Origin: Lytechinus pictus
Taxonomy: Eukaryota
NCBI RefSeq assembly: GCF_037042905.1
Contig: NC_087251.1
Coordinates: 8,558,001-8,622,000, forward strand
Reading direction: 5' to 3'
Length of the DNA: 64,000 nt
The position numbers and the translations under genes were made by a program. This document shows positions 1 through 60,235 of the stretch, in pieces. The notes under the pieces were generated by a model, which had not been told where the DNA came from, made no database searches, and worked only from the letters and a program-made list of their open reading frames with translations. Position 1 is the stretch's first letter. Every line of letters starts with the position of its first letter.

Positions 1-661
1 ATTTTGGTTCCAGAATAAATCAAAAGCCTCGCAATTGTGTTGCATTTCTCCACCGAGAGCGTAAAATTTGATTTACTTACAGCTCAAATGATATACAAGT
101 AGATTCGATTCCACTTCCTAATTAGCAATTGACATGCATTGCAATCGATTACAATTGTGTTTCTTGTAACACCCGTTCATCATCTACTCCTTGTACCCGT
201 TTCTTTCTCTCCCCTTCACCTACCCCAGGTACGCTCTCTCTCCAGGACTCGGTAATATCAAATTTCATATGATCTTTTCCACACCTCCACAAACTATAAG
301 CGGATGTGGATAAACTTCATTCATTTAGCACGGCTCGGGCAAACGGTGCCCCTCTTCTAACCCCCTCTCCCCCTCCTTTCTCACATTCTCTCTTTTCTTT
401 TCTTTATTTCTACGGATTCTCTTGTTTATCTTTTCCATTCAACTCCTTGAGTCGCGGCTGTATGAGGCGCCGAATGTACCAATATTATATAGAACAATTA
501 TTTGTTATATAATCATTATTTGTTAAATAATAACTATTATTTATATATAATTTACATTTTATTTGTAAATAACTACTATTATATAAAATATCATTTCTAA
601 TTATTTATATATAATTCCAAGTAATACTTCATTATTTGTAAATAATAATAGTTCGACATTC

Positions 662-1330
662 CATTATTTATAAATAATGATTATTTGTTTTTCATTATTT
701 ATAAATAATGATTATTTGTTTTTCATTATTTATAAATAATGATTATTTGCTTTTCATTATTTATAAATAATGATTATTTGTTTTTCATTATTTATATATA
801 ATGATTATTTGTTTTTCATTATTTACAAATAATGATTATTTGTTTTTCATTATTTATAAATAATGATTATTTGTTTTTCATTATTTATAAATAATGATTA
901 TTTGTTTTTCATTATTTATAAATAATGATTATTTGTTTTTCATTATTTATAAATAATGATTATTTGTTTTTCATTATTTACAAATAATGATTATTTGTTT
1001 TTCATTATTTATAAATAATGATTATTTGTTTTTCATTATTTATAAATAATTTGTTGAGTTTTCCATTATTTATAAATAATGATTATTTGTTAAATAATGA
1101 AAACGTCTACTTCATTATTTATAAATAAGTTTTTCGAGTGCACCATTATTCTCATTATTTATAAATAATCATTATTTAATGTTCGAGTTTTCCATTATTT
1201 ATAAATAAAGATTATTTGTTAAATAATGCCATTATTTATTAAATAATGCCATTATTTATTAAATAATGCCATTATTTATTAAATAATGCCATTATTTATT
1301 AAATAATGCCATTATTTATTAAATAATGGA
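662..1330 (+). repeat. Outer-domain tandem arrays of the fold-back left arm: ~12.5 x 31 bp, then 5 x 20 bp
   Basis: The 31-mer CATTATTTATAAATAATGATTATTTGTTTTT repeats from 662 with period 31; the 20-mer AAATAATGCCATTATTTATT repeats at 1221-1320. Confidence 0.95.
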
Positions 1331-2038
1331 AAACTCGCTATAACATGCAAATGTGGGACCGCCCATGATATGAATATTCATGATGCGATTTCCTTTTTCG
1401 TGATTTTTCTTCACAAATTTTTGTCCATTTCCTCTTCATAATGACATTTCTTGAAGCAATTTTCTAGGGATATGGTCTGATTGTAATATTCTTCATTTTC
1501 TATATAACTTCGTCTTCGTAGAAATATCAAAAAGTGTAATTTTATACGATTTTTCCTACAGTTCACAATCCCCATAGGCGCGCGTGTACGGTAGGGACAA
1601 CCGGTGAATCGACGGAGTGCTCTTCATCGAAATACTACGTTGGTTGGTCCCCGGAAGTGGCGGGCGGAATTTAGCCCGAATCCTCGATGGAAGTCGATCA
1701 AGTGCATATGAGCTGAGAGAGTGAAATATCAGTGTACTTGTACAGGCCCTTCTACTTTTTATAAATATTTCTTGTTGCTTTTTTGGTTAAGTTAATTTTT
1801 CCTGGTGTAGAGATAAGTTTCAGTTCTAATAATGCACTTCAAATACATTTTGGAGTGTCTGTTTGAGGCGTTTGGGGCGATTTCACCCTGGCCCCAAAAT
1901 GCTCGCAACAACAATACGGGGGCATGATGACCCCTAATTTTTTAAAAACTTATTTTTCTATTGAAAATTATCACAAAATTCACCAAAAGTGTGCACGAAA
2001 GCCTTTGTATTTCACTTTTAAAACTCCAAAAAGTGCCC

Positions 2039-2623
2039 AAATGACAAGCTTGGTCGCTTCGCTGTGTCGCTTTCAACTTGAGAACGTTTACGCGTCTGCT
2101 CCCCCCCCCGGCCCCCCTCCTCCGAAAGAAATTCTGTATATGGCCATGCTCTAAAGAGCCTGGCACATTGATTTATGTATACTTTCATTTTCATTATTTT
2201 TATCTCATTATCAACATGGCCTTACGCAGAATTTTTTCCAGGGGGGCCGGGGCCGGAGCATGACGCGCGTAAACTTTCTCAAAAAAATCTTGAAAGCGAG
2301 ACAGCCACGGGAACAAGCCCAAATGACAAGCTTTGTCGCTTCGCTGTCTCGCTTTCAACTTGAGAACGTTTACACGCGTCTGCCCCCACCCCCGAAAGAA
2401 ATTCTGTGAACGGCCATGCTCAAAAGAGCATATGGCACATTGATTTATATGTACTTTTCATTTTCATTATTTTTATCACATTATCATCATGGCCTTACAC
2501 AGAATTTTTACCGGGGGGGGGGGGGGGGGCAGCTAGGACGGGCGTAAAGTTTCTCAAAAAAATCTTGAAAGCGAGACAGCGACGCGACCAAGCTCAAATG
2601 ACAAGCTTGGTCGCTTCGCTTTC
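2039..2623 (+). repeat. ~280-bp direct repeat (2 units plus partial third) forming the centre of the fold-back
   Basis: AAATGACAAGCTT(G/T)GTCGCTTCGCT recurs at 2039, 2321 and 2596, and the downstream sequence of the units is alignable. Confidence 0.85.
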
Positions 2624-3584
2624 TCAAGATTTTTTTGAGAAAGTTTACGCGCGTCATGCTCCGGCCCCGGCCCCCCTGGAAAAAATTCTGCGTAAGGCCA
2701 TGTTGATAATGAGATAAAAATAATGAAAATGAAAGTATACATAAATCAATGTGCCAGGCTCTTTAGAGCATGGCCATATACAGAATTTCTTTCGGAGGAG
2801 GGGGGCCGGGGGGGAGCAGACGCGTAAACGTTCTCAAGTTGAAAGCGACACAGCGAAGCAACCAAGCTTGTCATTTGGGCACTTTTTGGAGTTTTAAAAG
2901 TGAAATACGAAGGCTTTCGTGCACACTTTTGGTGAATTTTGTGATAATTTTCAATAGAAAAATAAGTTTTTAAAAAATTAGGGGTCATCATGCCCCCGTA
3001 TTGTTGTTGCGAGCATTTTGGGGCCAGGGTGAAATCGCCCCAAACGCCTCAAACAGACACTCCAAAATGTATTTGAAGTGCATTATTAGAACTGAAACTT
3101 ATCTCTACACCAGGAAAAATTAACTTAACCAAAAAAGCAACAAGAAATATTTATAAAAAGTAGAAGGGCCTGTACAAGTACACTGATATTTCACTCTCTC
3201 AGCTCATATGCACTTGATCGACTTCCATCGAGGATTCGGGCTAAATTCCGCCCGCCACTTCCGGGGACCAACCAACGTAGTATTTCGATGAAGAGCACTC
3301 CGTCGATTCACCGGTTGTCCCTACCGTACACGCGCGCCTATGGGGATTGTGAACTGTAGGAAAAATCGTATAAAATTACACTTTTTGATATTTCTACGAA
3401 GACGAAGTTATATAGAAAATGAAGAATATTACAATCAGACCATATCCCTAGAAAATTGCTTCAAGAAATGTCATTATGAAGAGGAAATGGACAAAAATTT
3501 GTGAAGAAAAATCACGAAAAAGGAAATCGCATCATGAATATTCATATCATGGGCGGTCCCACATTTGCATGTTATAGCGAGTTT

Positions 3585-4233
3585 TCCATTATTTAATAAA
3601 TAATGGCATTATTTAATAAATAATGGCATTATTTAATAAATAATGGCATTATTTAATAAATAATGGCATTATTTAACAAATAATCTTTATTTATAAATAA
3701 TGGAAAACTCGAACATTAAATAATGATTATTTATAAATAATGAGAATAATGGTGCACTCGAAAAAATTATTTATAAATAATGAAGTAGACGTTTTCATTA
3801 TTTAACAAATAATCATTATTTATAAATAATGGAAAACTCAACAAATTATTTATAAATAATGAAAAACAAATAATCATTATTTATAAATAATGAAAAACAA
3901 ATAATCATTATTTGTAAATAATGAAAAACAAATAATCATTATTTATAAATAATGAAAAACAAATAATCATTATTTATAAATAATGAAAAACAAATAATCA
4001 TTATTTATAAATAATGAAAAACAAATAATCATTATTTATAAATAATGAAAAACAAATAATCATTATTTGTAAATAATGAAAAACAAATAATCATTATATA
4101 TAAATAATGAAAAACAAATAATCATTATTTATAAATAATGAAAAGCAAATAATCATTATTTATAAATAATGAAAAACAAATAATCATTATTTATAAATAA
4201 TGAAAAACAAATAATCATTATTTATAAATAATG
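3585..4233 (-). repeat. Mirror tandem arrays of the fold-back right arm: 4 x 20 bp, ~12.5 x 31 bp
   Basis: Reverse complement of the left-arm arrays, with the same variant units in mirrored order. Confidence 0.95.
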
Positions 4234-4802
4234 GAATGTCGAACTATTATTATTTACAAATAATGAAGTATTACTTGGAATTATATATAAATAATTAGAA
4301 ATGATATTTTATATAATAGTAGTTATTTACAAATAAAATGTAAATTATATATAAATAATAGTTATTATTTAACAAATAATGATTATATAACAAATAATTG
4401 TTCTATATAATATTGGTACATTCGGCGCCTCATAGTATAATACTTTATAGAAGGTCTCTTGCCCCGTTCACTGTAAGCTTACCATACAAAATGGTGTCAT
4501 GGAATTACAAAGTAGAATGAAAAAAAAATCAATACACATTACAAAAGAAATTCTTGTAGCATGATTCATCACATCCATGTCAGGAGACCCATGAGTTTAT
4601 TATAAATAAGATATACTCTGGCATAATTAACTTGCATTAAAAAATAATTACATGTGAAGATGTTCATAAGAAACTCATATGGGGCACTTTGATTTCATAA
4701 TGGATAACTCAAAGCAAAATATGAAAGAGGTTATGGTATTATCATTGTGTATTGATATTATTATCATTATTTTTTCCCCAAAGCTGGTGCTTTAAACATT
4801 AA

Positions 4803-5388
4803 AGGACAAGTCCACTCCAACAAAAAGTTGATTTGAATAAAAAGAGAAAAATCCAACAAACATAACACTGAAAATTTCATCAAAATCGGGTGTAAAATAA
4901 GAAAGTTATGAAATTTTAAAGTTTCGCTTAATTTCACAAAACAGTTATATGCACATCCTGGTCTGTATGCAAATGAGGAGACTGATGACGTCATCCACTC
5001 ACTATTTCTTTTGTATTTTATTACATAAAATATTCTAATTTTCTCCTCATTGCCAAGTGAAACAACGATTAATTCCTCCCTGAACATGTGGAATTAGCAT
5101 TGTTTAATACCATATGGTTCAGTCAAGTTGGTCCTTCTTGTCAAATTTGTAAAAAATGAAATATTGTATAATTCAAACAATAAAAAAGTAAGTGAGGGAC
5201 ATCATCGATCATCTCATTTGCATGTCACTCAGTTGTGTATATCACTGTTTTGTGAAAAATAATCGGAACTTGTAAAATGTCATAACTTTCTTATTTTATA
5301 TCCGATTTTGATGAAATTTTCAATGTTGTGCTAGTTTGATTTTTCTCTATTTATTCAAATCAACATTTTTCTGGGGTGGACTTGACCT
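4803..5388. mobile_element. TTAA-specific MITE, Kolobok-type (AGG...CCT ends)
   Basis: TTAA|AGGACAAGTCCAC ... GTGGACTTGACCT|TTAA, with imperfect TIRs over 100 bp. Confidence 0.8.
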
Positions 5389-8098
5389 TTAAACAACTTC
5401 GTAAGGAGTTTCAGCATAATATTGAATATCAACAGTTCGAGACAAACGTTTATGGGTATTATATCTATTTTTCACATATTGAATGATTTTTTTGTATTCA
5501 CCTAACATCACGATTGCTGGAGTATTGTTTCCTCTTCCAAATAAGAGAGTAGGTTCCAGATCTGATTGTTTGGATATGTTGGCAAAACCTTTTGAAAGAC
5601 ATTATTTCTGGCAAGTTCCCACAACACCTACAGGCATTGCGGACGATTAATTCCCAATGCTATACAACCCACCTAAATTTCAAACATTGCCCAATTACAT
5701 GTTCGTTTCACTGATTTTTCACAATACAAGGTAAAAACATCGACTGAAAAGATCCAAACAATCTTTGTGTACACGTCTGCCCACAAGCACACAATAAGAT
5801 ATGATTATGCATATTATGACCGTCTGTATTTATCTCACAAGAAACCAACATCATGTCAAAGAAACAATTAAAGGACTCTCGAGGGGGGGGGGGTTAAGCA
5901 CCCCTCCTCCCCGCCCCTCCCACTTCTCACCACTACCTACTTCGTCATCATTATTATAAACTATTATAAGACCAATGGTTGGTTCACGTATTTCAATTCG
6001 ACATTGGAACAATGTTAGCAAGGTTGTTTGTTTCTTTTTGTGGAATTTCTATCCGATTTAATGGTGCGTGCATCCGTAAAGAAAAGGCATTCCATGGACA
6101 GAATTTGATAAATCTCAGCAAGGATCAGACCATGTAAAGCGAGTCTATAGTGGATAAATGTCAGCAAAGAGTTAAATGTAGTTTTCTCATCCCCTGATCC
6201 ATGTAGATTTTTTTTCTTCCAGAAAACAATCAATTAGACAACACTAATACCCCCATGTCGACCAACTCCAGGCTCATATTGGCCTACTGTACTATGGAAC
6301 AGAACATTAAGCTGCCAATGGGTTTGGTTTGGATGGAGAGTTGCATTTAGAGACCACTTTTTAAGTTGTCCATATACTCTTGCTGCTTGAGCCTCTATTC
6401 CTCTATGCCACTTATCTGGTTTTAGTATCATGTCGAGACAGCCCCCACTCCGCCCGCCCGTAGAAAATGGAGGCAAAGTAAAGGTACATATACATATTCG
6501 TCGGCGTTCATCCGAACCGTCGTATCGGTCAATTTTGTTTAAAAAAAAAAAAAAAAAAAAAATGAGAGTACAAGTCCTATTCTATTCATAACTAAATTTA
6601 TAGGCAGCAATTTAGTTTTAGTTTTTGAGATATGAGGGGATATGGGTCTTATTTCCTTTCAATTACTTTGAGATTGATAATTACAATTTCTTCACCATGT
6701 TCACGAACAATCGTCACAATTTAGGTAAGCCAAACTCCAAAAGTGTGTCCTCACGTCACAATTTATATTTAATTCGTCTATCATGATTGAAAATCGAATC
6801 ATAATGTGACATCAGATATTGAAAAAAAGATTGTTTGCTTAAATGATAATCATAATATCCAACATCAATACTGCGCCAATGCAGGGAGGCAGACATGCGC
6901 ACAAAAACTGAATACCCCTGTAAATAAATAAATTGTTGCCATTGACCCCCCCCCCTCAAAATTAAATCAACTAGAAAAGTCATCCGTTCAATGTAATAAT
7001 AACGCATTGCCATTATTTTGCAGGTTTACAGAAAGACAGTGATACATTTTAAGTTCAATCAAGTAGGTCGAATATTAAACAACCAAATCTTGAAAACTTC
7101 ATACGGGTTCAGGCTAGCATAGACCAACTATTGTCCATAATCAAATTATAATCGTATTTTCTGCATTATACATTGTGTCTTTTTTTAACGATTCAATGGC
7201 AAAATTCTTTCTATTTATCACAGAGTATAGTGATACTTCTTTGAATTTACCGAATGAAAAAAAAAGGAATTATCTTCAACAAATTCTTCTTTAGCCCTTG
7301 ACATCAAAGGTAAGAGACAACTAAATCATTTTTCTATATTTCGTTGTTTGTATGTCACGCATCAGTTACATCCTAAAGTTTCTCTCCTAAACTTTGAAGA
7401 GCAAAGAATTTAATTGCTGTCATGAACTTTGATGATAAATCAAACCATCCCCAATTGAACTATCCATGAACTATAAAACCTTAAGATTCATTATAAAGTC
7501 AGCAGTTCATCAGAGCATTTCATTTGTTTGAATATCAAAATACATTTTGTACTTTGGTCAGAATATATATATATATATCTATACGATAAAACTAAGTTTT
7601 AGACATAAAAATGACACCGGCTTGTAAAAAAGATGAATCCGATTTCGTCCAAATTTATAAACCTGATTCCAATATCCTTCACATAATTTGTATTTGACTC
7701 GAATCAAATCAGTCAAGATTATGACCATTATTAATGCAAGTTTTATTATGTAAATGTCTCTCCGTGGTATGAATCACGTGCAGTTTTAGATAAAATATCT
7801 CAATCAGCGTATACCGATTATATCCTTACATTTCTAGGCATGATGAATGTATAATATCAATTGCCAAGCAAATAAAACTTGATATTTCAAGTGGCAAAAG
7901 TGGCATCTGGAATCCAATATTTACAAAATTGCTTAGTATTAAATTTACATCCGTCATTGCACACCGCGAATGGAAGCGAATCGCGTCACATGTCTTTAAA
8001 AAAATTGAGGTCCGATGTAAAACGTTCTGGAAGACGCTGATCATACTAGACACTGCACACCTTTGGCAAGATGAATTTCACGTACACAGTTATGTCAT

Positions 8099-9607
8099 TC
8101 ATGTATATAAAGATGGAATGTAAGTCATCCACTCTAACGAGCTACATACACGTAAATCACCCGACGGCGACGACGATGACCTATGATAAGAAGACAAAAC
8201 AGCGTTTGATGTTTTGTATTTCGTGTTAGATTCCCATTTAATAGGTTTGGTTTGCATGACAACTACACACTCTTCTCGACACTCCAACACCTCTGCAATA
8301 CTCGTCAAAAGAATACTCTCTCGACGTCGAAGTAAAGTGGCAGCATCGGGAGAAACCAGAAGACATGCTACACAATGCCTGATGTCGGGTACTGCAAAGT
8401 GAACGCGAGCATCGCCCACTGCGACATGACGTTGGATCTCTCTTGGGACATCACTCACCCATGAAACGTCGACGTCGTCTTCACCTATCGTGAAAAACGC
8501 TTTCAACGCCGTTGAGATTAAATCAGTTTGGACTTCACGTAACAGAGATGACGCCCCATCTACAATCTGCAAAGTTAGACGAAGGCTTATAGAAGCTTCG
8601 TCAAAATGCGAGGCAATCCTGATGTACTTCATGGCTGACTCAATCGTCTCACCGTAATCTTCCAAACTATTCCGGTATGTGTCGTCCTTCTTTCGAGTAA
8701 GAAACTGCCAGAGAGATCTCAATGGCCATGCCTTTGATGCAATTTTCCTATTAACATTTGCGACAAATCTGCTCTTTCTGCTGTTGTTACTACTTAGACT
8801 GGTTGAAGATGAAGTCGATTTGTTCGGTTTTCTCTTGATGGTACTGCGTCTTATTGTGTTGAGGTGCTCTGTTTCGCAGTAAGCAAACGATGAGGTAAAA
8901 TCCTCATTCGACATCAACTCAAAGGAATGGTTTCCTGGAAGATGACCATTCGTGCTCAAGTGGACAGGGGCTTCCTTCATAGAATAATCAGTAAGCACTT
9001 CCTCTACCTGTTCCTCATCGCATTCACTGAACTCTCCTCCGCTGTCGTACTCCTCATCGTGACGATCCATGTCGTCCTTGAAGCCAAGGTCCCATCTAAT
9101 CTTGTGTTTTTTACAACCAGCACTACATATCGGCACCTCCTCTTTGGTATAAGACAAACCATCATCACTGTAAGAGAAGAAAGTTACTTCACCTTTGTCG
9201 ATGTCATCAGTGTCAATGATACAACAGTTCCCATTGGGGTTGTTAGGTATCTCGTAAAACCCAAGATTATCCAAATTCTTCCGTTTCGTATTCGAGCTCA
9301 TCTTTAAGGGACTTGGTTTTAAGGTCTTAAGGAGTCTCAGAGATTTTCTTTTGACACTGCATCTGAAGCTGTGTCTGGAGGTAGGCTCTATTTTGTTCTT
9401 CGTTGGCTGCAATGTTCCATAATGTGTTGCGCTGTTGTTGTTCTTTGGAACGCTATCAGACCCAGTTGTAGAAGAGTCCCCTGACGAATGGCGTCCTGTA
9501 CGAGAAGGCAGCGTGTAGAATTTGCAATCCCTTTGGATCACACCTAAGTCATCAGATCTCATCGATTCAGTCCTCCCGTCTTCCGTTGGCCATTGTATTG
9601 CTGCCAT
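8099..9607 (-). CDS. Uncharacterised 502-aa protein: low-complexity Ser/acidic/basic N-terminal two thirds, probable globular alpha/beta C-terminal region
   Basis: 1.5-kb open frame with higher GC than its flanks. On the minus strand a polypyrimidine tract plus CAG acceptor lies 4 nt upstream of the ATG (exon starts at 9611). No transposon motifs recognised. Confidence 0.8.
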   Translation of the reverse strand: MAAIQWPTEDGRTESMRSDDLGVIQRDCKFYTLPSRTGRHSSGDSSTTGSDSVPKNNNSATHYGTLQPTKNKIEPTSRHSFRCSVKRKSLRLLKTLKPSPLKMSSNTKRKNLDNLGFYEIPNNPNGNCCIIDTDDIDKGEVTFFSYSDDGLSYTKEEVPICSAGCKKHKIRWDLGFKDDMDRHDEEYDSGGEFSECDEEQVEEVLTDYSMKEAPVHLSTNGHLPGNHSFELMSNEDFTSSFAYCETEHLNTIRRSTIKRKPNKSTSSSTSLSSNNSRKSRFVANVNRKIASKAWPLRSLWQFLTRKKDDTYRNSLEDYGETIESAMKYIRIASHFDEASISLRLTLQIVDGASSLLREVQTDLISTALKAFFTIGEDDVDVSWVSDVPREIQRHVAVGDARVHFAVPDIRHCVACLLVSPDAATLLRRRESILLTSIAEVLECREECVVVMQTKPIKWESNTKYKTSNAVLSSYHRSSSSPSGDLRVCSSLEWMTYIPSLYT

Positions 9608-11423
9608 TGAGCTGTGGGCATGATAAAAAAGGAGGAGAAGGTATTATACGGGAGTGAATATAAATCAATACCTCTTACAGAGTATAGAGAGTTACAGTCG
9701 TATACCTCATGGTTGTATAATCTTTTCAAACAATCCAAGACTTTTTACCTTGTTGGGCAACCTCGGCTCCTGGTCATTTTTATATCACATTAATGATCCT
9801 ACATCCTTCTCAAAGCTGCCTTGCCATGTTGCCTTATCTGCATGACCCCATCCGTCTCCTCTGATCGACTAACACAAAATGAGTTGAGCCTTTGCTCGCA
9901 ACAATACAACTGACGAACAAAAGGGATCGCTTTTGGGGGTAGCCCAGATCCAATAGTATAATAGTTGAAAAGCAAGCTCCTTGATTTGTACATGCATAAA
10001 TGGTTTTGCTGAATTTTGTTTTTCTTTTCGATTGGCGGTCGCATGTTCAGTGCAGGAATCTGAATAAATTACAAAGGTATGTGTCTTCACCAGGGTCTCC
10101 ACAAATCAAAATATAGTTCTGATTACTATAAGAACCCAATCTAATCCGATTGACAAGACCAATGAAGTTTATCTCATGAAAGACAAATTGTCATTATTAG
10201 CAATCTTTGAGTTTTATCGTGTACACAAATTTGTTATTCGTTGTAACTGTTGTGTCGCTTACATTCTGTAACTTGCTGACATTGTTATAGATTATAAATA
10301 TTATATTGGTAAGGGCGTCGCTACAGTGGGCAAAATGAGAAAAAGGAGAAGAAAGTGGAAGAAAGACGTTAATAAACAGTGGCAAGATGACACTTTTTTC
10401 AGTTGAATTAAGGGATATAGATTTGACCCATATATCCCCCTTTTTATGATCTTCTTCTTTTAGTTTTCCTTTGTTCCCCCACTACTTGAAAAATAATAGA
10501 TAGCCTCGCCCCCTGCATGTATAATTATAGCTGATTAGAGAAAATAATATATCTTTCTCTCTTTGTCTTGATGAATTGCAAATAAATGACGAAGAGGTAG
10601 TCACCCCTGTATATACCTAAAGACGCACTATACCCCTATATAAAATAATCTTATACGTAAGACATGTGGTTTATTATTAATGTCTCGAAAATAAAAAAAA
10701 TTAGCATTAAAGCGTTCAAAAAGAAAACAATCTAAATGGCACTATAGCAGATGGAGGGCTTAGGACCATGGACTTCCAAAAAATTTCACGACTATGAAAA
10801 AAAAAATAGGAAAGGAAGGAAAGGGAAAGGAAAAAAAAGACGAAATATCTTTTTCTGAATATTATGTCAAAATCTATAAACAAAATATATATATTTTTTG
10901 TAATAAAATCTTTAAAATTTTGGTTCTGACATCTTACCCCATATGCCATGTGTTCCTTCTCAATTTTTTTTGGCTCATTACACTGCCTATAAAAATGGCA
11001 GGGGTGCTAATTTGCACACGAACTCGACCTAAATTATCTGTCAGTTGATTATCCACCCACTATGGTGAGATACAGAATAGCAAGAGGGCTATAACATAAG
11101 AGGTTATTGTGTGTCTCACAGGGCCTCTGGCATATCGCCTATTGTCATTCAAAGATTGATGATTATAATGACGAGCATTCAATGTCGATATAATGTCCGA
11201 ACTTTGAACAACCTCAATCTTTACTTGTCAACAAACAGACCGTAAACATTGTAAACAAGGATATACAATTATTCCTTGAACTACAGACAGCAGACGACAC
11301 AGGCCAATTAATTAAGGCCAAGGTCAAGCATTGTTTATTTAGACCCGGAAGCAAAACGAACTGGTTAATTAAACATCAACATCATGGGAATATCAGATAT
11401 AAACACAATTACGGGCACATTAA

Positions 11424-11872
11424 AGGGGAAGTTCACCTCACAAAAAGTTTATTGTAAAGATAGCAGAAAAAATAATAATGAAAATATTGAAGGTTTTAGG
11501 AAAGTCCATCAAAGAATGCATGAAAAAGTTATTAGAATGTTAATTATTTGAGTTTTGACGTCACATGCGAGCAGCTTTCCTACATTATCGATTAATGTAA
11601 TTTTCTCAGAAAATTAGAAATGGTTTTTATTGTATCTTCCAGTAGGTATCAATACACAAATTCATTTCGAACCCGCTCCTTAAAAGAAAAGAAAACAAAC
11701 AAGTCATCACGAACCATTCAAAAATAAAATCTATGCATTTTATATTATAAAACATATGGGGCAGCTGCTCGTTTATGACATCACAAATCAAAAACTTGAA
11801 ATTCTAGTAGCTAAGGATTTTCCTCAAACTTTCATTATTTTCTATTACTCTTCATCAGGGTGAACTTCCCCT
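11424..11872. mobile_element. TTAA-specific MITE, Kolobok-type
   Basis: TTAA|AGGGGAAGTTCACC ... GGTGAACTTCCCCT|CTAA; homologous to the copy at 14964-16514. Confidence 0.75.
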
Positions 11873-11939
11873 CTAACATTGAAGTTTGAAAAGGATGAGA
11901 AAAACTTAAGAAAATAGAGTAAACGAGAAAAAAGCTGGA

Positions 11940-12200
11940 AAAGAGCAAAGAAGAAGAAGAAGAAGAAGAACTTGAAGAAGAAGAAGGAGAAGAGGAAGAA
12001 GAAGAAGAAGAAGGAGAAAAGGAAGAAGAAGAAAAGGAAGAAGTAGAACTTGAAGAAGAAGAAGAAGAAGGGAAAAGAAAATAAGAATATGAGGAGGAGG
12101 AAGAAAAATAATAAACATGAAAAAAAGGAAGGAAGGAAGAAAATTATATTGATTTAAAAAAGAAGAATAACAAAAATAAAGAAATATGAAGAAGAGATAG
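11940..12200 (+). repeat. Degenerate (GAA)n polypurine microsatellite
   Basis: Runs of GAAGAAGAA/GGA over ~250 bp. Confidence 0.9.
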
Positions 12201-17600: not shown

Positions 17601-20600
17601 CCATATTCTGAAATTGCACCCCTTAACAAGTATTGGCATGTGAAACCCTACCCTTAACAAGTATTGGAAACAAAACAATACTATTGGCAAGTATTCCCTG
17701 AATTGAACCCCTAAACAAGTACAGCGGTATGTCACGGACGTCGGTCGTCGGTTTTACCTTTACCTACATCATTGGGTTTAGAACAGCCCAACTCGCGCAA
17801 ATCATACTCTAAACACGTAGTGTTGACTCCTGGAGCAAAAAGTACATCCTTTATAAAAACATTTTAGTCTTGATTTTTATACCCTCGCAATTTGACCCTA
17901 AACACGTAGCTTTCCTAGCGAAATAGATACCCTTTTTTCATTATTTTAGTGTTTTTGACACCCTTATTACGTTACGTACGTAACGTGCCCTATCTTGAAA
18001 AAGACATCCTTTTTACGTGTTTTTTTGGTCGTGCATGGTATCCACTCGTCAATGTAAGTGGCCCCCCCCCCCCCCCCCCCGGGGAAAAAATGCATATTTT
18101 TGTATGAATCCTACACAGAAACTAGCTTAAAAAGAATAAGAAGCAAAATTTTTTACTTTTCATCCTAATTTCACTCCATATCCATCCTCCGGTTAGCATG
18201 GTTAGCCTCAAAATTTGTGATTTAGAGCCAACATCGAGTTCCTCACACAACATCGAGTTCCTCACACAATTAATCGCTGCCGATTTCAAAACATCGCATG
18301 CGCGAGGGTCTGAAATGGGAATTTCTATGGCTTTCTGTATTGGTGATGCTCTGGAATGGAAATTTAGGCTGGAAATGGGGGTCTCAGCCGTGCCCCCCCC
18401 CTCTGGGACTGAATGATATCGGGTACTGGGTGATGATATATGATGTGGTCTCAGACTCTAGACTAGGTGAGGATTGGGGGGGGGGGGGTGGAAGGTGTGG
18501 GCGCACACTGGCGTATACTTTTGCAGCATGTAGATCTAGAATTCATTAATTGGGCACCCCTTGAAATTAATGATGACCTTTCTTTTGGTTAGTTTTTGGT
18601 GATGAAATGTCTTTTACTGATGACCCTTTTTTTTCTTGACTATGAATGAATGAATGTCCGACTCTGGCCCTGTGCCTGAACACCAACCAACACTGTACTT
18701 GCAATGGTGGTGTTGGGATTGACCTCAGAAATTTCTGGTAGTGCTGGTGTTGAATGTCGTCTGCTGATAGCTGAACCAAGCACTTCAGCTGGTATTGATG
18801 ATTTATGTGTAATTTCCCATTCACAGACAATTGTGACATCAAACCTACTGGCCCTTGGGGTATAATATAATTTTAAGTTCCGTATTGCTGTTGGTGATCT
18901 GAAGCTCACAGACGGCCATTGTGGACAGAATCTGCGAGAATCGTCCTGAAAAAAGCAACCTACTTCTTTTTCTCTAAGAATACAGACAACCAGTCGGTGG
19001 ACTGTACTTCATCATCATCATCAGAAGAAGAAGAACCTTCTAGGGCCAGTTTCATGAAGAGTTACAACTGTTCTAACTTTGCCATTATGGCAATTACCAT
19101 GGAAACCTTGATTTTGATTGGCTGCTAGCCCAGTTGCCATGGTAGTTGCCATTAGGGCAAGGTTACAACAGTTGAAACTCTTTATGAAATGGGCCCTTGG
19201 TCTATTATTGTACTATTGAGGTTTGCCGTGGAATGGCATGTGCAATAAACTGGGTGAAAACCCTACTCTTTGGTGAATCGTATTTTTGGTTTTAAAGGGA
19301 TGGTCCGGGCTGAAAATATTTATATATCAATAAATAGAGTAAAATTCGCAGAGCAAATTGCTGAAAATTTGATCAAAATTGGGTAACAAATAAGAAAGTT
19401 ATTGAATTTTGAAGATTTGCATTATTCCGGTGAAACAGTTCTAGGCATGTCCTTATGAATATTCATTAGGTGGGCTGATGATGTCATATCCCCACTTGTT
19501 CTATTGTATTTTATTATACGAAATTAGGTTTATTCAACAATTTTCTACCAAGAACTAAAACAATTGGATTGACAACTGATTAAGTGCATTAGTTATTTAT
19601 TGCCGCAACTTATTTAATTATAATGGAGACACATCACTTACACATGTACGATAAAATGAAACATTTATGATTTCATGTAATAACATAAGAAAAAAGAAAG
19701 TGGGGATGTGACATCATCAGCCCACCTAATGATTATTCATGACAATGTGCATATAACTGTTTTCACAAAATATTGATAAGCTTTAGAATTCAATAACTTT
19801 GGTATTTGTTATCAGATTTTGATGAAATTTTCAGCATTTTGCTTTGTGAATTTTACTCTGTTTATTTAGATATAAATATTTCTCGTCTGGACCATCTTTT
19901 TAATGTACACACTACACATGTTGTAACTCTCCTATACCAGGGACCAACATTTGCATCCTTTCTGATGGATGCAGTGGTTTTAAATTGTATTTTCCACAAT
20001 TACAAAGGATGCTAACACAAATATATGAGCATCAGTTGTTGCTTTTTAGATGGGTTTCGGCATGAGCGGGACTCTAACCCCGCACAGTGGGATCTACGAT
20101 GTTATCCATAACAGGCATTCTAAGTTTCTAAGTGACTGAGCTACGTCACCTGGTACATGTACATCTTCAATGAGGATTCAAGGGCAGGCCACAGCCACTA
20201 GGACACTCTAGTCTAGACACTGGCTTGTGCAGATATCCCAGATTTGTTCATTCTATTAAAACAGGGATTTTATAAATTTTTGGCGTTTTTAGCTCATCCG
20301 GCCTGAAGGGCCAGATGAGCTTATGCCGTGGCGTGGCGTTCGTCGGCTGTCGTCTGTCCACAATTTCAAAATGCTTCTTCTTCGCCATTTCAAGTCCGAT
20401 TTTAATTCTGTTTGCTTTATATGATAGCACTAGGTGGGGGATTCAAAACTTCTACACAGTATTTGGAAACTCATTAAATATGCTAATTCATGCACATTTT
20501 TCAAAATTCACAAAAATGCTTCTTTATTTGTTGACTGATTTTAAATTTTTTGCTTCCTTCTGGTAGAGCTTCATAAGGTTCACCAAACTTCTACACAGAA

Positions 20601-23600
20601 TTTCGAAATTTTGACTAGAAAATTATTTATGCTAATTTATGCGAAATTCATAAATCACAGAACATGCCTCTTCTTTATTTGTTGACTGAATTTCAAAATG
20701 CTTCTTCTTCGTCATTTCAAGTCTGATTTCAATTCTGTTTGCTTTATATGATAGCATTAGGTGGGGGGTTCAATTCTACACAGAATTTTGAAACTCATTA
20801 AATATGCTGATTTATGCGTATTTTTAAAAACTCACAAAAAATGCTTCTTCTTCTTTAATTGTTGATCAATTTTGATTTTTTTCTTCCATCTGGTAGAACT
20901 TCATGAGGTTCATAAAAGTTGAACACAAAATTTTGAAATTTTGTCTAGAAAATTATTTATGCTAATTTATGCAAAAATTTATTCATAAATCACAAAAAAT
21001 GTTTTTTCTTCTTCATCTGTAGATTGATTTCAATTTTGTTTGCTTTATATGGTAGCTCGAGGTGGTGATACAAAATTTCAACACAGAATTTTGAAAAACT
21101 CATTAAATATGCTAATTTATTCATATATTTTCAAAACTAACAAAAAATACTTATTTATTTGTTGATTGATTTTGATGAATTTTGTTCCATCTGAGAGCTA
21201 CATGAGGTTTACCAAGGTTCTACACAGAGTTTAGAAATTTTGACTAGAAAATTATTTATGCTTAATTTATATGAAATTTATTCATAGATCACAGAAAATA
21301 CTTCTATGTCACTTCTTCATCAATTTCAGTTCTATATCCTCAATTTATGTCACCAATATAATTTACTACAGTGTCAACTGGGCTGAAATTAAAATTGTGT
21401 TAAATTTCGTTGCGAGATGCCGGATGAGCTCCACATCATTGATGTGCTAGTTTAAATTCTATTCCTGTTCTGCACCTACCTATGAAAAACACAGTCCATG
21501 TAGAATGCAAGCACTCAGCTAAAGTGAAGTGTATAATTGGATAAAAAGTTTTTCTGTGTCCATGGGTCTCACTCTCATTCAATGACTGGTCTTGGGATGG
21601 GCAAACAATGGATTTTGAAGTTAAAGGGATGCTCCGGGCTGAAAATGATATTTAAACAGATAATGAAAAATCATACAAACAAAATACTGAAAATTTGATC
21701 AAAATCGGACAACGAATAACAAAGTTATGGCATTTTAAAGATTTGCATTATTCCAGTGAAACAGTTCTAGGTATGTCTTTATGAATATTCAATGAGCAAA
21801 TTGATGATGTCATATCAATATCCCCACTTGTCCTTTTGTATTTTATTATATAAAATTGGGTTTATTCAAATTTTGTCTACCAAGCACTGAAAAAATTGGA
21901 TTGTCAACTGATTACATGTAGTGCATTTGATATTAATTGCTGCAACTAATTTCATTATTGAGGAGACACATTATTCACACATGTATGAAAAAATGAAACA
22001 ATTATGATTTCATGTAAAAACCTAAGAAAAAGGAAAGTGGGGATGTGACATCATCAGCCCACCTAATGAATATTTATGATGATGTGCATATAACTATTGT
22101 CACAAAATAATGCTAAACTTTAAAATTCAATAACTTCATTATTTGTTATCCGATTTTGATGAAATCGTCACCACTTTGCTCTGAATTTTACTCTATTCAT
22201 TAAGATATTCTTTTAGCCGGAGTATCCCTTTAATGGTTAATGGTTTTTGTCTCGCCTGCATAGCAGAGCGAGACTATAGGCGCCGCTTTTCCGACGGCGA
22301 CGGCGGCGTCAACATCAAATCTTAACCTAAGGTTAAGTTTTTGAAATGACATCATAACTTAGAAAGTATATGGACCTAGTTCATGAAACTTGGGCATAAG
22401 GTTAATCAAGTATTAGTAAACATCCTGCCTGAGTTTCAGGTCACATGACCAAGGTCATTTAGGGTCAATGAACTTAGACCATGTTGGGAAAATTATTTTC
22501 AAAATCTTAACCGAAGGTTAAGTTTTTGAAATGACATCATAACTTAGAAAGTATATGGACCTAGTTCATGAAACTTGGGCATAAGGTTAATCAAGTATTA
22601 GTAAACATCCTGCTCGAGTTTCAGGTCACGTGACCAAGGTCAAAGGTCATTTAGGGTCAATGAACTTTGGTCAAGTTGGGGGTATTTGTTGAATTACTAT
22701 CATAACTTTGAAAATGGATCTAGTCCATGAAACTTGGACATAAGGTTAATCAAGTATTAGTGAACATCCTGCTTGAGTTTCAGGTCACATGACCAAGGTC
22801 AAAGGTCATTTAGGGTCAATGAACTTTGGCCAAGTTGGGGGTATTTGTTGAATTACCATCATAACTTTGAAAATTTATGGATCTAGTTTATGAAACTTGG
22901 ACATTAGGTTAATCAAGTACCACTGAATATCCTGTGCGAGTTTCAGGTCACATGACCATGGTCAATGGTCATTGAAGGTCAATGAACTTTGGCCGTGTTG
23001 GGGGTATTTGTTAAATTACCATCCTAACTCTGAAAGTTTATGGATCTAGTTCATAAAACTTGGACATAAGAGTAATCAAGTATCACTGAACATCCTGTAC
23101 GAGTTTCAGGTCACATGACCATGGTCAAAGGTCATTAAAGGTCAATGAACTTTGGCCGTGTTGGGGGTATTTGTTGAATTACCATCCTAACTCTGAAAGT
23201 TTATGGATCTAGTTCATAAAACTTGGGATATAAGAGTAATAAAGCATCACTGAACATCCCCTGTGAGTTTCAGGTCACAAAACCAAGTCAAAGGTCAGTT
23301 AAGGTCAATAAACTTAGGCCATGTTGGGGTAATTGTTGAAGTGCCATCATAACTTTGAAAGTTTATGGATAGAGTGAATGAAATGTGGACATGGGTGTAG
23401 TTGACAGTCTTAAGTCTCCGTTCAAATGTCATTTATGGTCAATGAACGTGGTATTATGTCATTATATGAATGATGTTTTTGTGAATGATTATTTTATAGT
23501 AGTTTTCAAAGTTAGCACTGCTGCTATATTAAATTGCGTAATGCAGGCGAGACTGCCAGAGGCGTTCCACTTGTTGATGAATGTTTTTACTGTGGTAGTA

Positions 23601-26600
23601 CCTTTGCTTCTTAAATAAATACAGAATTTGAAATTAAACTTACATGTATCAAACCTTATATTGTGTTCAAACCAAACATCAAATTAGAAATATATTTACC
23701 AAACAACAAAGGAATACTTATCTTGATCCGTAGGGCTGAAATTATGAATACAGAAAATAGATATTGTATGTACCAAATTTTGTTTTGTAAACAGCAATTT
23801 TCAAGTACATTTTTATGAACTGACTCTGTATATTCTTTGTTCTAGCTGTCACTTTGATATCGACATACTACAAAGTCATCATGTTGGCAATAGTCCCATC
23901 ATTAGTTCACCGTTGGTAGCAGACATTAATGCTGATGGCACTCTTGATATCATTTCAACAACATTTGATGGGACTATTGATGTTGTTGACGGGGAGAACA
24001 TGAAACCACATTCCAGATCACAGTGGCCTTATCAATTCCCAAACAGCACAGTACACTCAAGCCCCATGTTGGTATGTATTGGTATTTGTTTAGTATTGAA
24101 TTCAGGGTTGACTAGACAATGTTATGTTACTGTAAAGGTGTTAATTTTTCATAATTGTAACAGGAGATATTTATCTGATTTTGTTAGTTTCCATTGTGAA
24201 TGTGTTCAGAGTTCAGATATCTGCTGCACATGACAAAGTGCAACAAATACTTTTATGTGAGAACACATGAGTGATAAATTAGACTATTCAAGGCTTTTGG
24301 CACATGCACCCAACAGATTGTTGCCACTGTGTGTGTTGCCACTGTGTGCCATACCAGTTTGATGTTTCAATATGAAAAGGGAATGACTTGTCATATATGA
24401 GAGATGAATTTCATGACAAAAGCTCTACCCTTCTAGCGTATATGTTTCATCTACCAAATAATCTTGAATGAAATACGTATGCATTTGTAGATATTTTAGA
24501 TTTGGTTTAAGTTCCATTTTAGTCACATGTACATTCTACTTTATATAGACTATCCAAAAAGAATAAAAGCCTGGGGCCGTATTCTGAAAATTGTCTTAAG
24601 AGAAATATTCTTGTATCTTAAGAGTTACAATAAAATCCGTATTCCGAAAATTGTCTTAACTTTTCTTGTAACTTTCACTGAGCGCGTATGATGTCAGAGA
24701 TATAATGATGCGTAAATATATAATCGGCGCACATTATGTCTGTGCGCAAGATAAAATCTCGAGTTACAAGGTATTCTGAAAATTCTCTTATCTTTGCGTT
24801 CTCTTAACTTCCTTGGAAAATACAATGAAATTTACAAGAGGTGGGGGGCTATTGTAACTTATTGTTGCATGCGATATTTGACCGTCCGCAAAAATTATTT
24901 CTTGCTGCATCCCGCAAGAACATCATATTTTACAAAAGGAGACATTCCAAAGACATTATAACGACGGATTGGTAGACTTTTCAGAAATTAAAAATTGGTG
25001 TTCGAGACGATGAATCTTTCGAGAGAAAATAATCTTTGAAAAGAGCCACGTGTATTTTTAGCACAGAAGCGCACAAGCATAAGCGTCGGAGGCGCAAGGA
25101 AATTACGCCTCATAACAACAATGCGCTTCATTATTTTTCAGAAGAGACGCTTCTATTGGTTGACCTAAGCATATAACAAGCTTAATAATTGGTTGATGAC
25201 AGAATATTGGGCGTGTCAGAGATAAAATAGGGGACGCCCTTACAGAGATAAGACAATTTTCAGAATACTAATTTAAGAGAATTTTAGCGCGCTGTTATCT
25301 TGCTGACTTACAAGAAAAGTTAAGAGAAAAGTTAAGACAATTTTCAGAATACCACCCCAGGTGTCATGCCAGTCATGGACTATGTACAATCAGATTGGAT
25401 GTGTGCGTCAATCCATGTAACCCAACTCAATTTTTGCTCCAGCACCTTGATGTTCTTCACATGTATTTCCTTTTAATGTCTAAACTTTCATGGTTTTCAA
25501 GATATATACAGTATATATTCATATATAAGTAAATTATTGAATTAATGTCCTTCTCTGTTTTATTTAGTATGATGTCGATAGTGATGGCCTGCCAGAAGTT
25601 GTAGTGTTTACTACTGATGGAGAGATTAACTACTTCAAGATAGATGGGACATTTCTTCCAGACAAAACAGTGCAGGTACAACCTTAATTATACTTTAAGT
25701 TTGAAAAAAAAAAAGGAAAAAAAAAAGAGTTCAATTTTTATGAAACCCCCAAATAGAAATTGGAACTGATTTTCAAGTTTCAAACATTCAGCCAAACAGA
25801 AGTATGCAGTTGGGACCAGTGTTTAATTGTAGTTGTTTGTGCAATAGGCCCCTGGGCCCGTATTCCATAAACGAGATAAGCTTTTTGCTTAAGTCTTAGC
25901 AATTTGTCTTAGCATTTTGCTTGTCTAAGAAATCTTACCTAACGATATTCTATAAACCTTAAGACATTTGTCTCAAGTCAGACGATATGGCTAAGCCAAA
26001 GTCTCAAATTCTAGTATTAGGTACTGCTGCAGGGGTGACTGCAACAAACTTGCAAAAATGTCACTGAAGTTGTTTTTTCTTAAAAATTAGGATTTTATTG
26101 AAACTAATTACAACAATTGTAGTAAAAGAAGAGCATTCATCACCCATATATGGTAAGAATTTTTTATTCAGATTATCTATATTTTTGTTAATAACCAAAA
26201 CATTTCAATCCCAAACCGAGTGACTTGAACAGTTTTTTGTGTATCAGTCCCATTTATTACTTTTCATGTATTGTTTGTCAAAATCTAAATTGAATAGATT
26301 CCTCTCGACATCTTTATTTAACTTTAGTTTAAGTAGACCTAAGGGAAAACTTTTGTAACTTTTGAGACTAGTCTTGGGTCTCACATTAGGCCTAGATCTA
26401 GACTAGGCCCAAGATCTAAAGCTAATATCCGTCTGTTTGGAGGAGAATTGAACATCGTTTTGACTTTTTTACTTTAAGGCTGAAGCAAAACTTAACTTTG
26501 TTAGTCTAGTGGCGTGCCATTAATTTTGGTTTTTTAATATGTTGTTACCATGGCAACGTGATATTTTATATAGGCATAAAATATGTTTTGCATATCTTCA

Positions 26601-28120
26601 CATCAAGACTAATGTTTGTGCCACATTTCATGAGAATTGGTTTAAAACTGAGGAAGTAGTTAAAACAGCAATATTTATACATAATTTTGCCATAATATAC
26701 CGTTACCATGGCAACACAATTTCCGACACATGCAAAAATGTATCTTGCACATCTTTTCCTCAAATCCAATGTGTGAGCCAACTTTAATGAGAATTGGTAG
26801 AAAAATGATGAAGTATTTTAAACGGCAAAATTTTGGCCATAATATACTGTTACCATGGCAACACAATATCTGAAAAAGCAAAAAAAAAATGTTTACACCT
26901 CCTTACCTTAAGACCAATGTGTGTTCCAAATTTCATGAAAATCGGTTAAAGCTAAATTACAGTAGTTGCAGTAAAACACTAATTTCGTGAGAAAGTCTGT
27001 AAAACCAAGGTTAAGTATGACTATATCATCGTGGATCTAGATCTGGTACAGTTACATAAACTGAACTTTGTGAAATCATAAAATCTAAGCTGAAATACGA
27101 TCACACTGAAGATCGCCAACACAGATAGGCACACGTGGGACAGTGTATTATTATTGCTGGAATAAAGACCCGACGGAAGTGACCGAATCCGCGCTTATTT
27201 TGCTTATATCTCAGCAATTACACAATTTCTTCCAGAATCCTTTGGCGCATATTTTTTATTCATACAAACAGACACTTGGGTGGTCATTATATTAGATTCT
27301 GTAAAAAATCATTTTGAGATCGTTACCAGAACTGGAATTTACCTTTAAAAACTGAGGAAGTAGATCGAAATGCAATATAGGTATTGTTGCGGCATGAAAT
27401 ATAATAGGGTCTGAAACCCAAGCCTATTAATGAACAAAGTTACCTGTATGCAAAGTTATTTTGTGTCTATTGGTTAGGATCTCACTTTCCTCTCCTGGTG
27501 ACAAAATATTTCTAAATGTACTAATTCTGGTTGGTCAAGTATACCATGCCCAGTGTATAATCAGGTAGCAACAGTAATCCAATTGGTCAACACATTGGCC
27601 AAGCATGTAAATTAAACATGACTCAGAGATACCAAGAAATAGGAGATACCACAAAGTTATCCCACTTGGCATCAGAAGACAAAGGAAAGTTCCACAGTCA
27701 AGACGTGTTCACCATTTTGTTATAAAACTTGAAGAAAATTGCATAGATTTGGAGGTCAAACAATTGGTGAGTTGAAATTATATTATTTGTATAGTTATAC
27801 ATATTTGTACTGATAATCTCGTACTAGTTAAGGGACTTTCTTCTGTATTTAAATCATAAATATTGTTGTTTGTCATGAAGTTGTGATGACTGCATCTCAG
27901 TCGAGTATATATACTACTCCGCCTAATGTTATATAATACTTCTTTAAGTTAAGAAGGGAGAAATTCTGGTTCTGATTGTAATAATGTATATGAATTAATG
28001 CATCTCTCTTATGTGTAATTAAGTTAATAGACATTACATTACTCTGATTATTAGTATTCGATATACATGTATTAGTAATTCTAAATGAGGTTTCCTAAGA
28101 GGATTGCTAGAGTGAGAGAG

Positions 28121-28160
<40 letters not shown>

Positions 28161-31100
28161 AGTTTGACCATATACGTGCACACACACAAGTGCACCTACT
28201 ATTAAGTCTTTGTTCTGGAGTGTACAGATTTGTCAATGGGCAAAAGTTGTGGCTAGGCTGTCAACTTGACGGTTGCCATGGGTACGAAGTTCTGACCATG
28301 ACTGGGGTTTGTTTACACAACCGCTTGTGTTTAGTAGTATTAGGATTAAAGTTAGTATCGATTTATCTTTGGTATATGATGAGTTTAAGTTCATATTTTA
28401 GTTATTATGTTGTATCATCATTGTATATATACCTGAGCGATATGTATTAGCTTGTTATAGTCTTGTTTATATTTTACTAGTTGTCAAGAAGATATTCTGT
28501 TGTCGTTAGTTGTTTGACAATGATTGTTAATCATGTATTTATCATGTGTTTATCTTCTTTCTTATATTTCAGCAAACCACTCACTCACTCAATACACTCG
28601 CTTACTACACTCAGTTCATTTACTAGCTTCGTTCACTACACTGTTCACTATTCTGTACAATTGTTCGTCGTTTAATTATTCATCTGTATACTTCATTTAC
28701 GCTCAACTCCGTCAAGTTATTAAACTGTTTACATCTTTCGCTTATGATTTGTAAACTGCTTCGATACTTGGAGAATTGTTGATTGCTGTGATTAAATGAA
28801 GCATAACTGTATGGAATTGTGTTCCTGAACTGTTTATTTCGAGTGCGTTCGGAATATCGACCATCAAATTTATAACTACCATCCTACTTTAAACTCCTGT
28901 GGCTTAATTTGTTTACAGAAGTCACATAAGTTTGCAATTGCCAGACAATAATAAGGATGGCAGATTCAGATTTTTCAAATGATGATAACGTCACTTCGCT
29001 GAAGCATTCATGTAGGGGATACATAGGGACATTATCCCGACTCTACAAGGAACTAGAGGTTTTAATGGCAGACTTCGAAAAGAAGGACGCAGTCGTGCAA
29101 AGGCATCTCCAACTCGAAAGGGTATTCACCTCGTACAAGGAAAAAAGCGATGAATACATAAGCGAGTTGAGTGGAGCAGAAGCGGAGGCTGCGTCAGAGA
29201 AATTCGAGAGAAATGTCGAGAACAATCGAGAGTTCCGAGTCAGACTACAAGATTGGATGGAAGCAGCGGAGAAAAGAGTTGACGTGGGAGGTCGGTCAGC
29301 CGACGTTGACGGCGACGTCGATGACGACAGGCGGTCAGTGCGGTCTTCTCGATCGTCGAGTAGCAAGGCATCGCGGTTCACCGTAGCGAGCTCGACATCG
29401 TCAGCACGACTGCGAGAAGCAAGAGCCAAGGCGGCTGTTGCACGCCTCAATAGACAGCACATGGTAAAGGCCCATGAACTTAAGCAAGAACAATTGAAGC
29501 TTGAACAGAAGCTTGCGGCGATGGAAGCCGACAAGGACATCGCAGCTGCTGAAGTTGAGCTTCAGTGTCTTGAGGAAGAATCGGACGATGAATGTCAAGT
29601 AAGAGTAGATAAGTCAATTAAGGTACATGTTAATGACTCTACCTTTAATGATGTCAAAACAAGGGATAATAGATATTCTCTTGATGAAGCTGCACATGTC
29701 CCCATGGTAACAAATTTGAATCCAAATGCCCCAGAATACACTGGGAAAGGGGTAAAAGTAGAAAGTGTCAAGGGGGATGGTGCAGCCATTTCTAACATGA
29801 CTCAAATGTTTAACGCTATGGACTTAGTGATGAACATGCCAAAGCCGGAAATGAAAGTATTCGATGGTAACCCATTAGATTATTGTGCCTTTATTTCCAG
29901 CTTTGACGCCACTGTAGCTTCTAAGATAAGTGATGATAGGGCTAAGCTAACGTATTTAATACAATACTGTAGTAGTAAGGCTAAGGATAGCATTGAAAAT
30001 TGTGTCTTCCTAGGGTCCCAGACCGGATACCAAAAGGCAAGGGATATTCTAGAAAATCAATTTGGGCAGCCATACATGGTTGCCACTGCTCACATGAAAA
30101 AGGTGCTAAGTCGTCAGCCCATCAGACCAAATGACGGTGAAGCACTATGGGACCTTGCTCGCGGCATGAGGAAATGTCAGATGGTTTTGTCGCAAGGAAA
30201 TTATCGAGCCGACATGGATAGCACAGAAAACCTTCTGCGCATCCAACAGCTCTTGCCGGTCCACTTGCAGTCCGAGTGGGCAAGGAGGGCGCACTCAATG
30301 ATGACCAGGTTCATGGCTCCAACGTTTGAAGCCATGACTATGTTCATTGAGGAGTCTGCCCAGTTATCAAGTAATTTGTTTGGCCAAAACATTGGCAAAT
30401 CGAAAAACAAACCATCTGACAAATCCTCAAAGCCAAAAGGAGGGTTCAAGGTAACAACAATGTCGACTCAGAGCAACCCCACAGCTGGTAAAGGTAAGTC
30501 TAAAGCAAAGAGCGATAGAAGTTGTCTTTGCTGCTCTGGGCGGCATAACCTAGAGGACTGTAGGAACTTTGTCAAGAAATCCTTCGAAGAGAGGAGGAAC
30601 ATTACCAGGAAGCACAAGTTGTGTGATAACTGCTTCCGACCTTCACATATGTCGTCCGGATGCATGATGAAATCTAGATGTACTGAGAAGGGATGCCAAC
30701 GGAAGCATCACACCCTTCTTCATGCTCCTGCATCCTTCTTCAAGGAAAGAAAACTTGACAAAGCTAACCCCAAGAAGTCTAGCAATTCCCAAGAATCCAA
30801 CTCAGACACCGGGGCCGGTAGTTCAGATGAAGAAGCCTCTAGCAGAGAAGCGGGCGACTGTTACAGCAGTGTAACTTCACAAAGAAAGGTAAGTCTAAGG
30901 GTCTTGCCGGTGAAGGTCCAAGGTAATGGACGTGAAGTACAGACATGGGCCTTACTGGATGAAGGGAGCGATATATCAATCTGCTCCAAGGATTTGGTAA
31001 GAGACCTTGGGATGACAGGGTCACCACGGCGAATTCAACTCACAACTGTCAATGGGGTTGATTCCCAGCAAGGTGAAGAGGTCAGCCTCAAGGTCAGGGA

Positions 31101-35796: not shown

Positions 35797-35836
<40 letters not shown>

Positions 35837-60193: not shown

Positions 60194-60235
<42 letters not shown>

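Follow-up and report, generated by a model that had tools for sequence, protein, structure and literature searches.

A gene-less foldback element with near-identical 1.8-kb arms in the sea urchin Lytechinus pictus

How did a nearly perfect 4-kb palindrome come to lie in a sea urchin genome, and what kind of element is it? We addressed this question in a stretch of 64,000 nucleotides of Lytechinus pictus (contig NC_087251.1, positions 8,558,001 to 8,622,000), hereafter called the window, in whose own numbering all positions are given. Positions 461-4434 of the window form a foldback element of 3,974 bp with the ends 5'-TATGAGG...CCTCATA-3', a structure that has no strand of its own. The foldback class has long been known from sea urchins, whose TU elements, like the FB elements of Drosophila, are non-autonomous transposons of foldback structure. 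The element described here is very probably a non-autonomous DNA transposon of the cut-and-paste type, foldback in build, which inserted recently and carries no gene.

A palindrome with modular arms

The left arm (461-2293, 1,833 bp, plus strand) and the right arm (2624-4434, 1,811 bp, minus strand) were delimited by alignment. When the left arm was globally aligned with the reverse complement of the right one, 1,808 of 1,811 aligned bases were found to pair, a likeness far beyond chance level. The arms are separated by three substitutions (1129/3766, 2006/2909 and 2055/2860) and two indels, namely one 20-bp repeat unit and one CC, which together explain the 22-bp difference in length. The resulting arm distance is 0.17% (95% range 0.03-0.48%). 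Moreover, the two arms carry identical full 31-bp repeats in an identical order (12 of 12), and this holds for the variants at 750, 781, 812 and 967 too. All of these points (a 4-kb palindrome with near-identical arms of about 1.8 kb, the origin of the length difference, the small number of substitutions and the mirrored variants) had been noticed in an earlier reading based on sequence only, and all were confirmed here. Its claim that the palindrome lacks coding capacity holds as well: the longest stop-to-stop frame in the element has 117 amino acids and the longest ATG frame 81, and none of the six distinct longest element frames (taken from 12 frames of at least 70 amino acids) reached the Pfam cut-off. 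No Rfam match was found across positions 1-12000 of the window.

Each arm is built of several domains, given here for the left arm on the plus strand with their mirrors on the right. The terminal domain (461-627; mirror 4268-4434) consists of a 20-bp non-repetitive tip, found solely at both element ends in the whole window, and of degenerate 18-, 21- and 42-bp AT-rich repeats. It is followed by a 31-bp tandem array (628-1091; mirror 3804-4267) with 15 copies according to Tandem Repeats Finder, 12 of them full. At the core of the 31-bp unit is a perfect palindrome of 18-20 bp, whose 18-bp form was counted 20 times in the element and not once in 4435-64000 (59.6 kb). The array is a putative transposase-binding array. 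Further inwards lie a 20-bp tandem array (1192-1328), with seven copies on the left and six on the right (3587-3703), and a complex inner domain (1331-2034; mirror at about 2881-3564). Within this inner domain, positions 1551-1720 are rich in CpG (53% GC, 15 CpG per 170 bp), a level reached by 2 of the 349 windows of this kind elsewhere in the 64 kb. The segment contains what we take to be GC-box and ETS-like motifs and is possibly a putative remnant of an inward promoter of a parent or master element. As RNA, the inner arms could form a duplex with a computed energy of -1,796 kcal/mol, and a cruciform or a double-stranded RNA hairpin is a structural possibility.

The 330 bp between the arms hold no foreign spacer and consist of the end of a first module of ~275 bp (U1), an entire second one (U2) and the start of a third. 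U1 (2035-2316, plus strand; mirror copy 2624-2880) and the unpaired central copy U2 (2317-2590, plus strand) are both imperfect hairpins, and U2 aligns with U1 over 241 matches, 26 substitutions and 22 gap columns. The self-complement scores of the modules range from 172 to 178, the latter being that of U1, compared with 52 for the best of 200 shuffles of U2. The DNA fold of U2 has an energy of -71.8 kcal/mol (z -10.5), and none of 200 shuffles was equally stable. A 13-bp linker between the modules was found three times in forward orientation, at 2035, 2317 and 2592, and once backward, at 2880. Alignment of the junction with both unit ends revealed that the third module (its start and the switch point lie at 2591-2626, plus strand) sets out forward and then runs on as U1's inverted end. 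The switch takes place at a TCGCT(TTC) microhomology, which is common to the module start and its inverted end, with two extra bases. Since the passage from left arm to right arm thus occurs within shared module homology, it points to an internal-deletion derivative. The centre retains the junction which made the palindrome, and its build as an array of self-complementary ~275-bp modules, a point absent from the earlier reading, indicates how the palindrome closes.

Copies, an element-free allele and copying between arms

Among public sequencing runs, 20 of the 24 listed hold part of positions 1-2620 of the window. Contigs of four runs (X1, X2, X3 and X14) were compared with positions 4268-8250, which comprise the right end and its flank only. 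Record 1 of X1 matches 4268-4434 with one difference (166 of 167 bases) and then continues into a different flank of 29 bases, and record 16 of X2 begins precisely at 4434, again with one difference. In X14, at least 21 contigs lie over position 4304. In the same run, record 10 (1,095 bases) matches 5435-5910 and 4435-4782, and its further 206 bases do not fit the element. This record is an element-free allele: the unique right flank (4435-4782, plus strand) is present there without the element, and an element resembling a miniature inverted-repeat transposable element (MITE) at 4799-5392 is absent too. The limits of the element are therefore given by the arm alignment, the recurrence of 4434 in X1 and X2, and the match of the allele from 4435. 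Taken together, the other flank joined at 4434 in X1 and the element-free allele in X14 indicate a mobile, multi-copy insertion and no fold-back artefact. Because the X14 allele lacks the element, the insertion either took place after the X14 genome had split off or is polymorphic. Long terminal inverted arms, modular arms, a non-coding middle and, for the right end, dispersed copies and insertion polymorphism were thus all found, which makes the element a member of the foldback structural class.

The MITE-like element itself has 594 bp, with 143-bp arms at 83%, and has relatives at 19292-19903, 21613-22233 and 56470-56978. In X3 and X14 it occurs in very many copies, and loose ends at 4798/4799 and 5392/5393 number in the hundreds.

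Among the flank pieces listed, those of X14 depart from the window at 103 of 2,866 bases (3.6%) and those of X3 at 28 of 2,359. The depth at the element end is about 500 in X14 and 121 in X3, compared with about 20 and 22-28, respectively, in the flank; although such ratios are no copy number, they suggest several to tens of ends. None of the runs carrying the sequence was listed as RNA. Four runs that were guessed as RNA, and are possibly DNA, hold 0.37-0.39 of the sampled words; the small word shares of X18-X20 were left out of account.

The right end also preserves a record of exchange between the arms. At 4373 the window carries C, matched by G at the mirror site 522. In the runs, T at 4373 accounts for 54.7 of 54.7 depth units in X1, 4.82 of 4.82 in X2, 86 of 86 in X3 and 379.2 of 397.2 in X14. 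As this rare variant is found in both arms, it was copied from arm to arm in this copy or its immediate lineage; the array variants, mirrored in 12 of 12 cases, were also counted for such copying. It follows that arm identity is no clean clock. The earlier proposal of a young or homogenised foldback family is upheld by these signs, together with the other flank at 4434 in X1, the contig end at 4434 in X2 and the element-free X14 allele.

Ends, related systems and competing explanations

Where the element ends, and whether its insertion duplicated the target site, bears directly on its kinship. No exact duplication of 3-15 bp was found at symmetric boundaries inset by 0-5 bp. The letters allow a 1-bp G (with ends TATG), a 2-bp TA (ends TGAG), a 2-bp AT (ends GAGG) or an asymmetric GTAT, and none longer. 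The sequence-only reading was thus right that no duplication of 6-9 bp exists, and too narrow in admitting TA only, as G, AT and GTAT fit as well. Read as right ends, the bases after CCTCATA are G at the right of the window element, C at its left and T in X1; three different bases at this place mean that the conserved end extends through ATA. A TA repeat is present at the boundary, yet the element-free allele (X14 record 10, whose letters are not displayed) matches from 4435, not from 4433 or 4432. Hence, TA is more likely part of the ends (5'-TATG...CATA-3') than a target duplication, contrary to what had been proposed. The TA..TA termini at 461/4434 are backed by X1, X2 and X14 record 10, and not by X14 record 9.

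IS3EU/GingerRoot is defined by TA..TA ends and by duplications of 6 bp, rarely 7-8 bp (PMC10045372, PMC6839031), and the fungal IS3EU ends read TAYGG..CCRTA (PMC12730594). The element resembles this group in its TA..TA ends and in its TATG, which fits the fungal TAYG(G), and the group is found in marine invertebrates. It differs in carrying terminal inverted repeats (TIRs) of 1.8 kb versus the 100-150 bp given for Selaginella, and in having no transposase in view. Judged from the letters of the ends, a transposase of IS3EU/GingerRoot type acting on this element, with a rearranged flank at this copy, is a tentative first choice that falls short of an even chance. The element is likened to that group and not assigned to it, because the 6-bp duplication is absent. 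The superfamily, which had been called unclear, is in this way narrowed to an IS3EU/GingerRoot-like end and not closed.

On the favoured explanation of a non-autonomous foldback transposon, the element would derive from a longer parent with long inverted ends carrying ~275-bp modules. Owing to the self-complementarity of the modules, a forward copy in the left end and an inverted copy in the right end would be directly homologous to each other, and the interior would have been lost there by deletion or template switching. The arms would then be kept alike by copying between them. A transposase made elsewhere in the genome may bind the 31-bp arrays with their palindromic core and the 20-bp arrays, by analogy with Galileo, and would cut at the TA ends; the 6-bp duplication might have been lost at this copy through an adjacent deletion or an exchange between copies. 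No host function has been shown for the element.

Galileo provides precedents for several of these steps, since two-arm copies, arm extension, conversion and non-matching flanks in 12 of 170 copies have been described for it (PMC3573991), as well as transposase sites within internal repeats (PMC3688188). Tetris (PMC4079207) has long inverted arms too, of up to 1,735 bp. Both systems share with our element the flanking domain, tandem repeats, inner domain and non-coding middle, along with arm extension and conversion. However, duplications measure 8-10 bp in Tetris and 7 bp in Galileo, and the element has none that long; its two outer arrays are short and have a palindromic core, and its inner modules are hairpins. 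The likeness is one of build. Duplications of 8-10 bp, as in the Mutator-type foldback elements FB, Tetris and TU, were found neither at symmetric insets of 0-5 bp nor at asymmetric offsets from -12 to +12, and a Mutator-type assignment was rejected. Crypton, which has short direct repeats and no TIRs (PMC3212892), was rejected as well. Academ, with duplications of 3-4 or 9-10 bp, does not agree with the boundary found here either.

Several observations weigh against the favoured explanation or the end chemistry linked to it. The 6-bp duplication is absent (CGGCTG on the left and GTATAA on the right, neither hexamer occurring in the opposite flank searched, for one copy), which is odd for arms merely 0.17% apart. 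The fifth base of the element is A (TATGA..TCATA), and that of the fungal motif is G. The diverged record 9 of X14 fits just to 4433, with its last letter mismatched, and counts against a fixed final A. The 4435 boundary comes from an allele of undisplayed letters in a genome that is 3.6% divergent. The read comparison concerns the right end, and no record spans the element. Finally, no master bearing a transposase was found, the exact-pattern scans having covered viral, prokaryote and metagenome sequence and not the host genome; they gave no match for four patterns in viral contigs and none for two in prokaryote genomes. Four metagenome matches to the 19-base end were rejected as chance, as no alignment extended beyond the pattern. 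We found no publication on this foldback family in the literature searched, which did not include a comparison with Repbase or Dfam.

Among the rival explanations, the one that survives best, unlikely though it is, takes either TA as the duplication, with the ends 5'-TGAGG (Tc1/mariner-like, or from a PHIS lineage that duplicates TA), or AT, with the ends GAGG (resembling ISL2EU). At insets 2 and 3, TA and AT respectively form exact direct repeats, the same ATA stands on every end in the window, X1 and X2, and X14 record 9 fits solely to 4433. However, a match of the element-free allele from 4433 (for TA) or 4432 (for AT) is then predicted, and a match from 4435 was observed. ISL2EU was considered for the AT repeat readable at inset 3 and rejected: its target is A-AT-T (PMC4482050), versus T-AT-A here, and AT is not kept in the element-free allele.

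It is slightly more doubtful that the family inserts without any duplication, or with one of 1 bp (G here), and is an unclassified long-TIR family with TATG ends. The sole repeat at the boundary 461/4434 is then the 1-bp G, which is expected by chance in 27% of cases; with near-identical arms, a duplication should have survived; and the element-free allele matches from 4435. Duplication-free TIR elements do exist, as reported for Spy, a PHIS element with TIRs of up to 1,474 bp (PMC4122938), and for PHIS more widely (0-4 bp). On the other side, just one copy has both flanks visible, and TA..TA ends already have a known owner with 6-bp duplications. Spy itself was rejected, since it needs targets split between AAA and TTT, has the ends GGANNNNG and carries long TIRs free of sub-repeats, and none of these features is found here: the flanks are CTG on the left and GTA on the right, and the ends are TATGAGG. 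Any other end chemistry is most unlikely.

A recent move of a young subfamily between species, by horizontal transfer or introgression, is improbable on present evidence. In its favour, X1 and X2 carry the end at 166 of 167 bases, at 0.48 and 0.44 of sampled words and with the window's A at 4304, and the unique flank is uncovered in both. X14 covers the flank at about 96%, yet 188 of its 188 depth units at 4304 read T, and it holds only 0.24 of the words. But gaps in filtered contig data prove nothing, and the same picture would arise if X1 and X2 contained little host DNA, because only a homogeneous high-copy family then assembles; the 29-base tip fits this. X3 is possibly RNA and so yields no copy number for the window's own species. 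Low-depth host DNA in X1 and X2, combined with a subfamily burst in the lineage of the window, fits as well or better. Equally improbable is a more far-reaching proposal, namely a sea-urchin family, young and still mobile, whose 1.8-kb arms are built of repeats and end in TATG, which inserts duplication-free or with 1 bp and fits no described superfamily, whose self-complementary modules would be built-in deletion points turning full elements into pure palindromes, and which may recently have moved between species.

That the palindrome is a chimera folded back during assembly, or that polishing made its arms identical, is scarcely credible despite an arm identity of 99.8% and the lack of a spanning record among the contigs, since the mirror ends sharply at the family end with unrelated flanks on the two sides, the same end occurs in four independent runs, five arm differences are retained, and the 330-bp centre is asymmetric with a distinct module.

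Neighbourhood and significance

The neighbouring gene to the right lies on the minus strand at 8099-9643, as a single large exon for a protein of 502-514 amino acids with no Pfam match and a conserved C-terminal half. The open reading frame of 502 amino acids is identical to a Lytechinus pictus protein at 497 of 505 residues (98%), which by itself places the window in a Lytechinus-type sea urchin; four relatives were found, the named ones being echinoid. The element lies 3.7 kb from its stop codon (8099), as previously stated. In X3, guessed as RNA, the listed cover extends over 5565-8250 and is lacking at 4534-4666, a filtered single-run gap that is uninformative on how far the 3' untranslated region of this neighbour reaches. 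No poly(A) signal was found near 5565 on the minus strand.

The remainder of the window contains further repeats. A BEL/Pao long terminal repeat (LTR) retrotransposon at 27385-36602 has LTRs of about 1.55 kb with 99.9% identity, a 5-bp duplication (GGTAT) and one open frame of 1,951 codons with Pao peptidase and integrase domains; its insertion is very recent. A dispersed family with a 163-bp (and 192-bp) tandem repeat has three copies in the window (22241-23580, 58133-59259 and 63493-64000). In addition, we noted a diverged tandem repeat of three units of about 300-330 bp (20362-21305) and, at 59660-59996 and 60842-61182, two inverted copies of about 340 bp (83%) on either side of a run of 35 T at 60196. 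An exon at 23748-24233, within a larger plus-strand gene, has an FG-GAP-like repeat below the Pfam cut-off.

What is new in this foldback element is the set of three ~275-bp hairpin modules in its centre, with the passage between the arms in their shared homology. The case is a clear one, as the palindrome-making junction has been preserved and a variant private to both arms serves as a record of arm-to-arm copying. A near-perfect palindrome of 4 kb is a likely rearrangement site, and the insertion polymorphism is useful in a model sea urchin. Duplication-free insertion, if true, would matter because the length of the duplication mirrors how the transposase cuts and joins DNA, and TIR groups of this kind are few among those known. 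A master that links IS3EU/GingerRoot transposases with foldback arms, if there is one, would raise the importance of the family.

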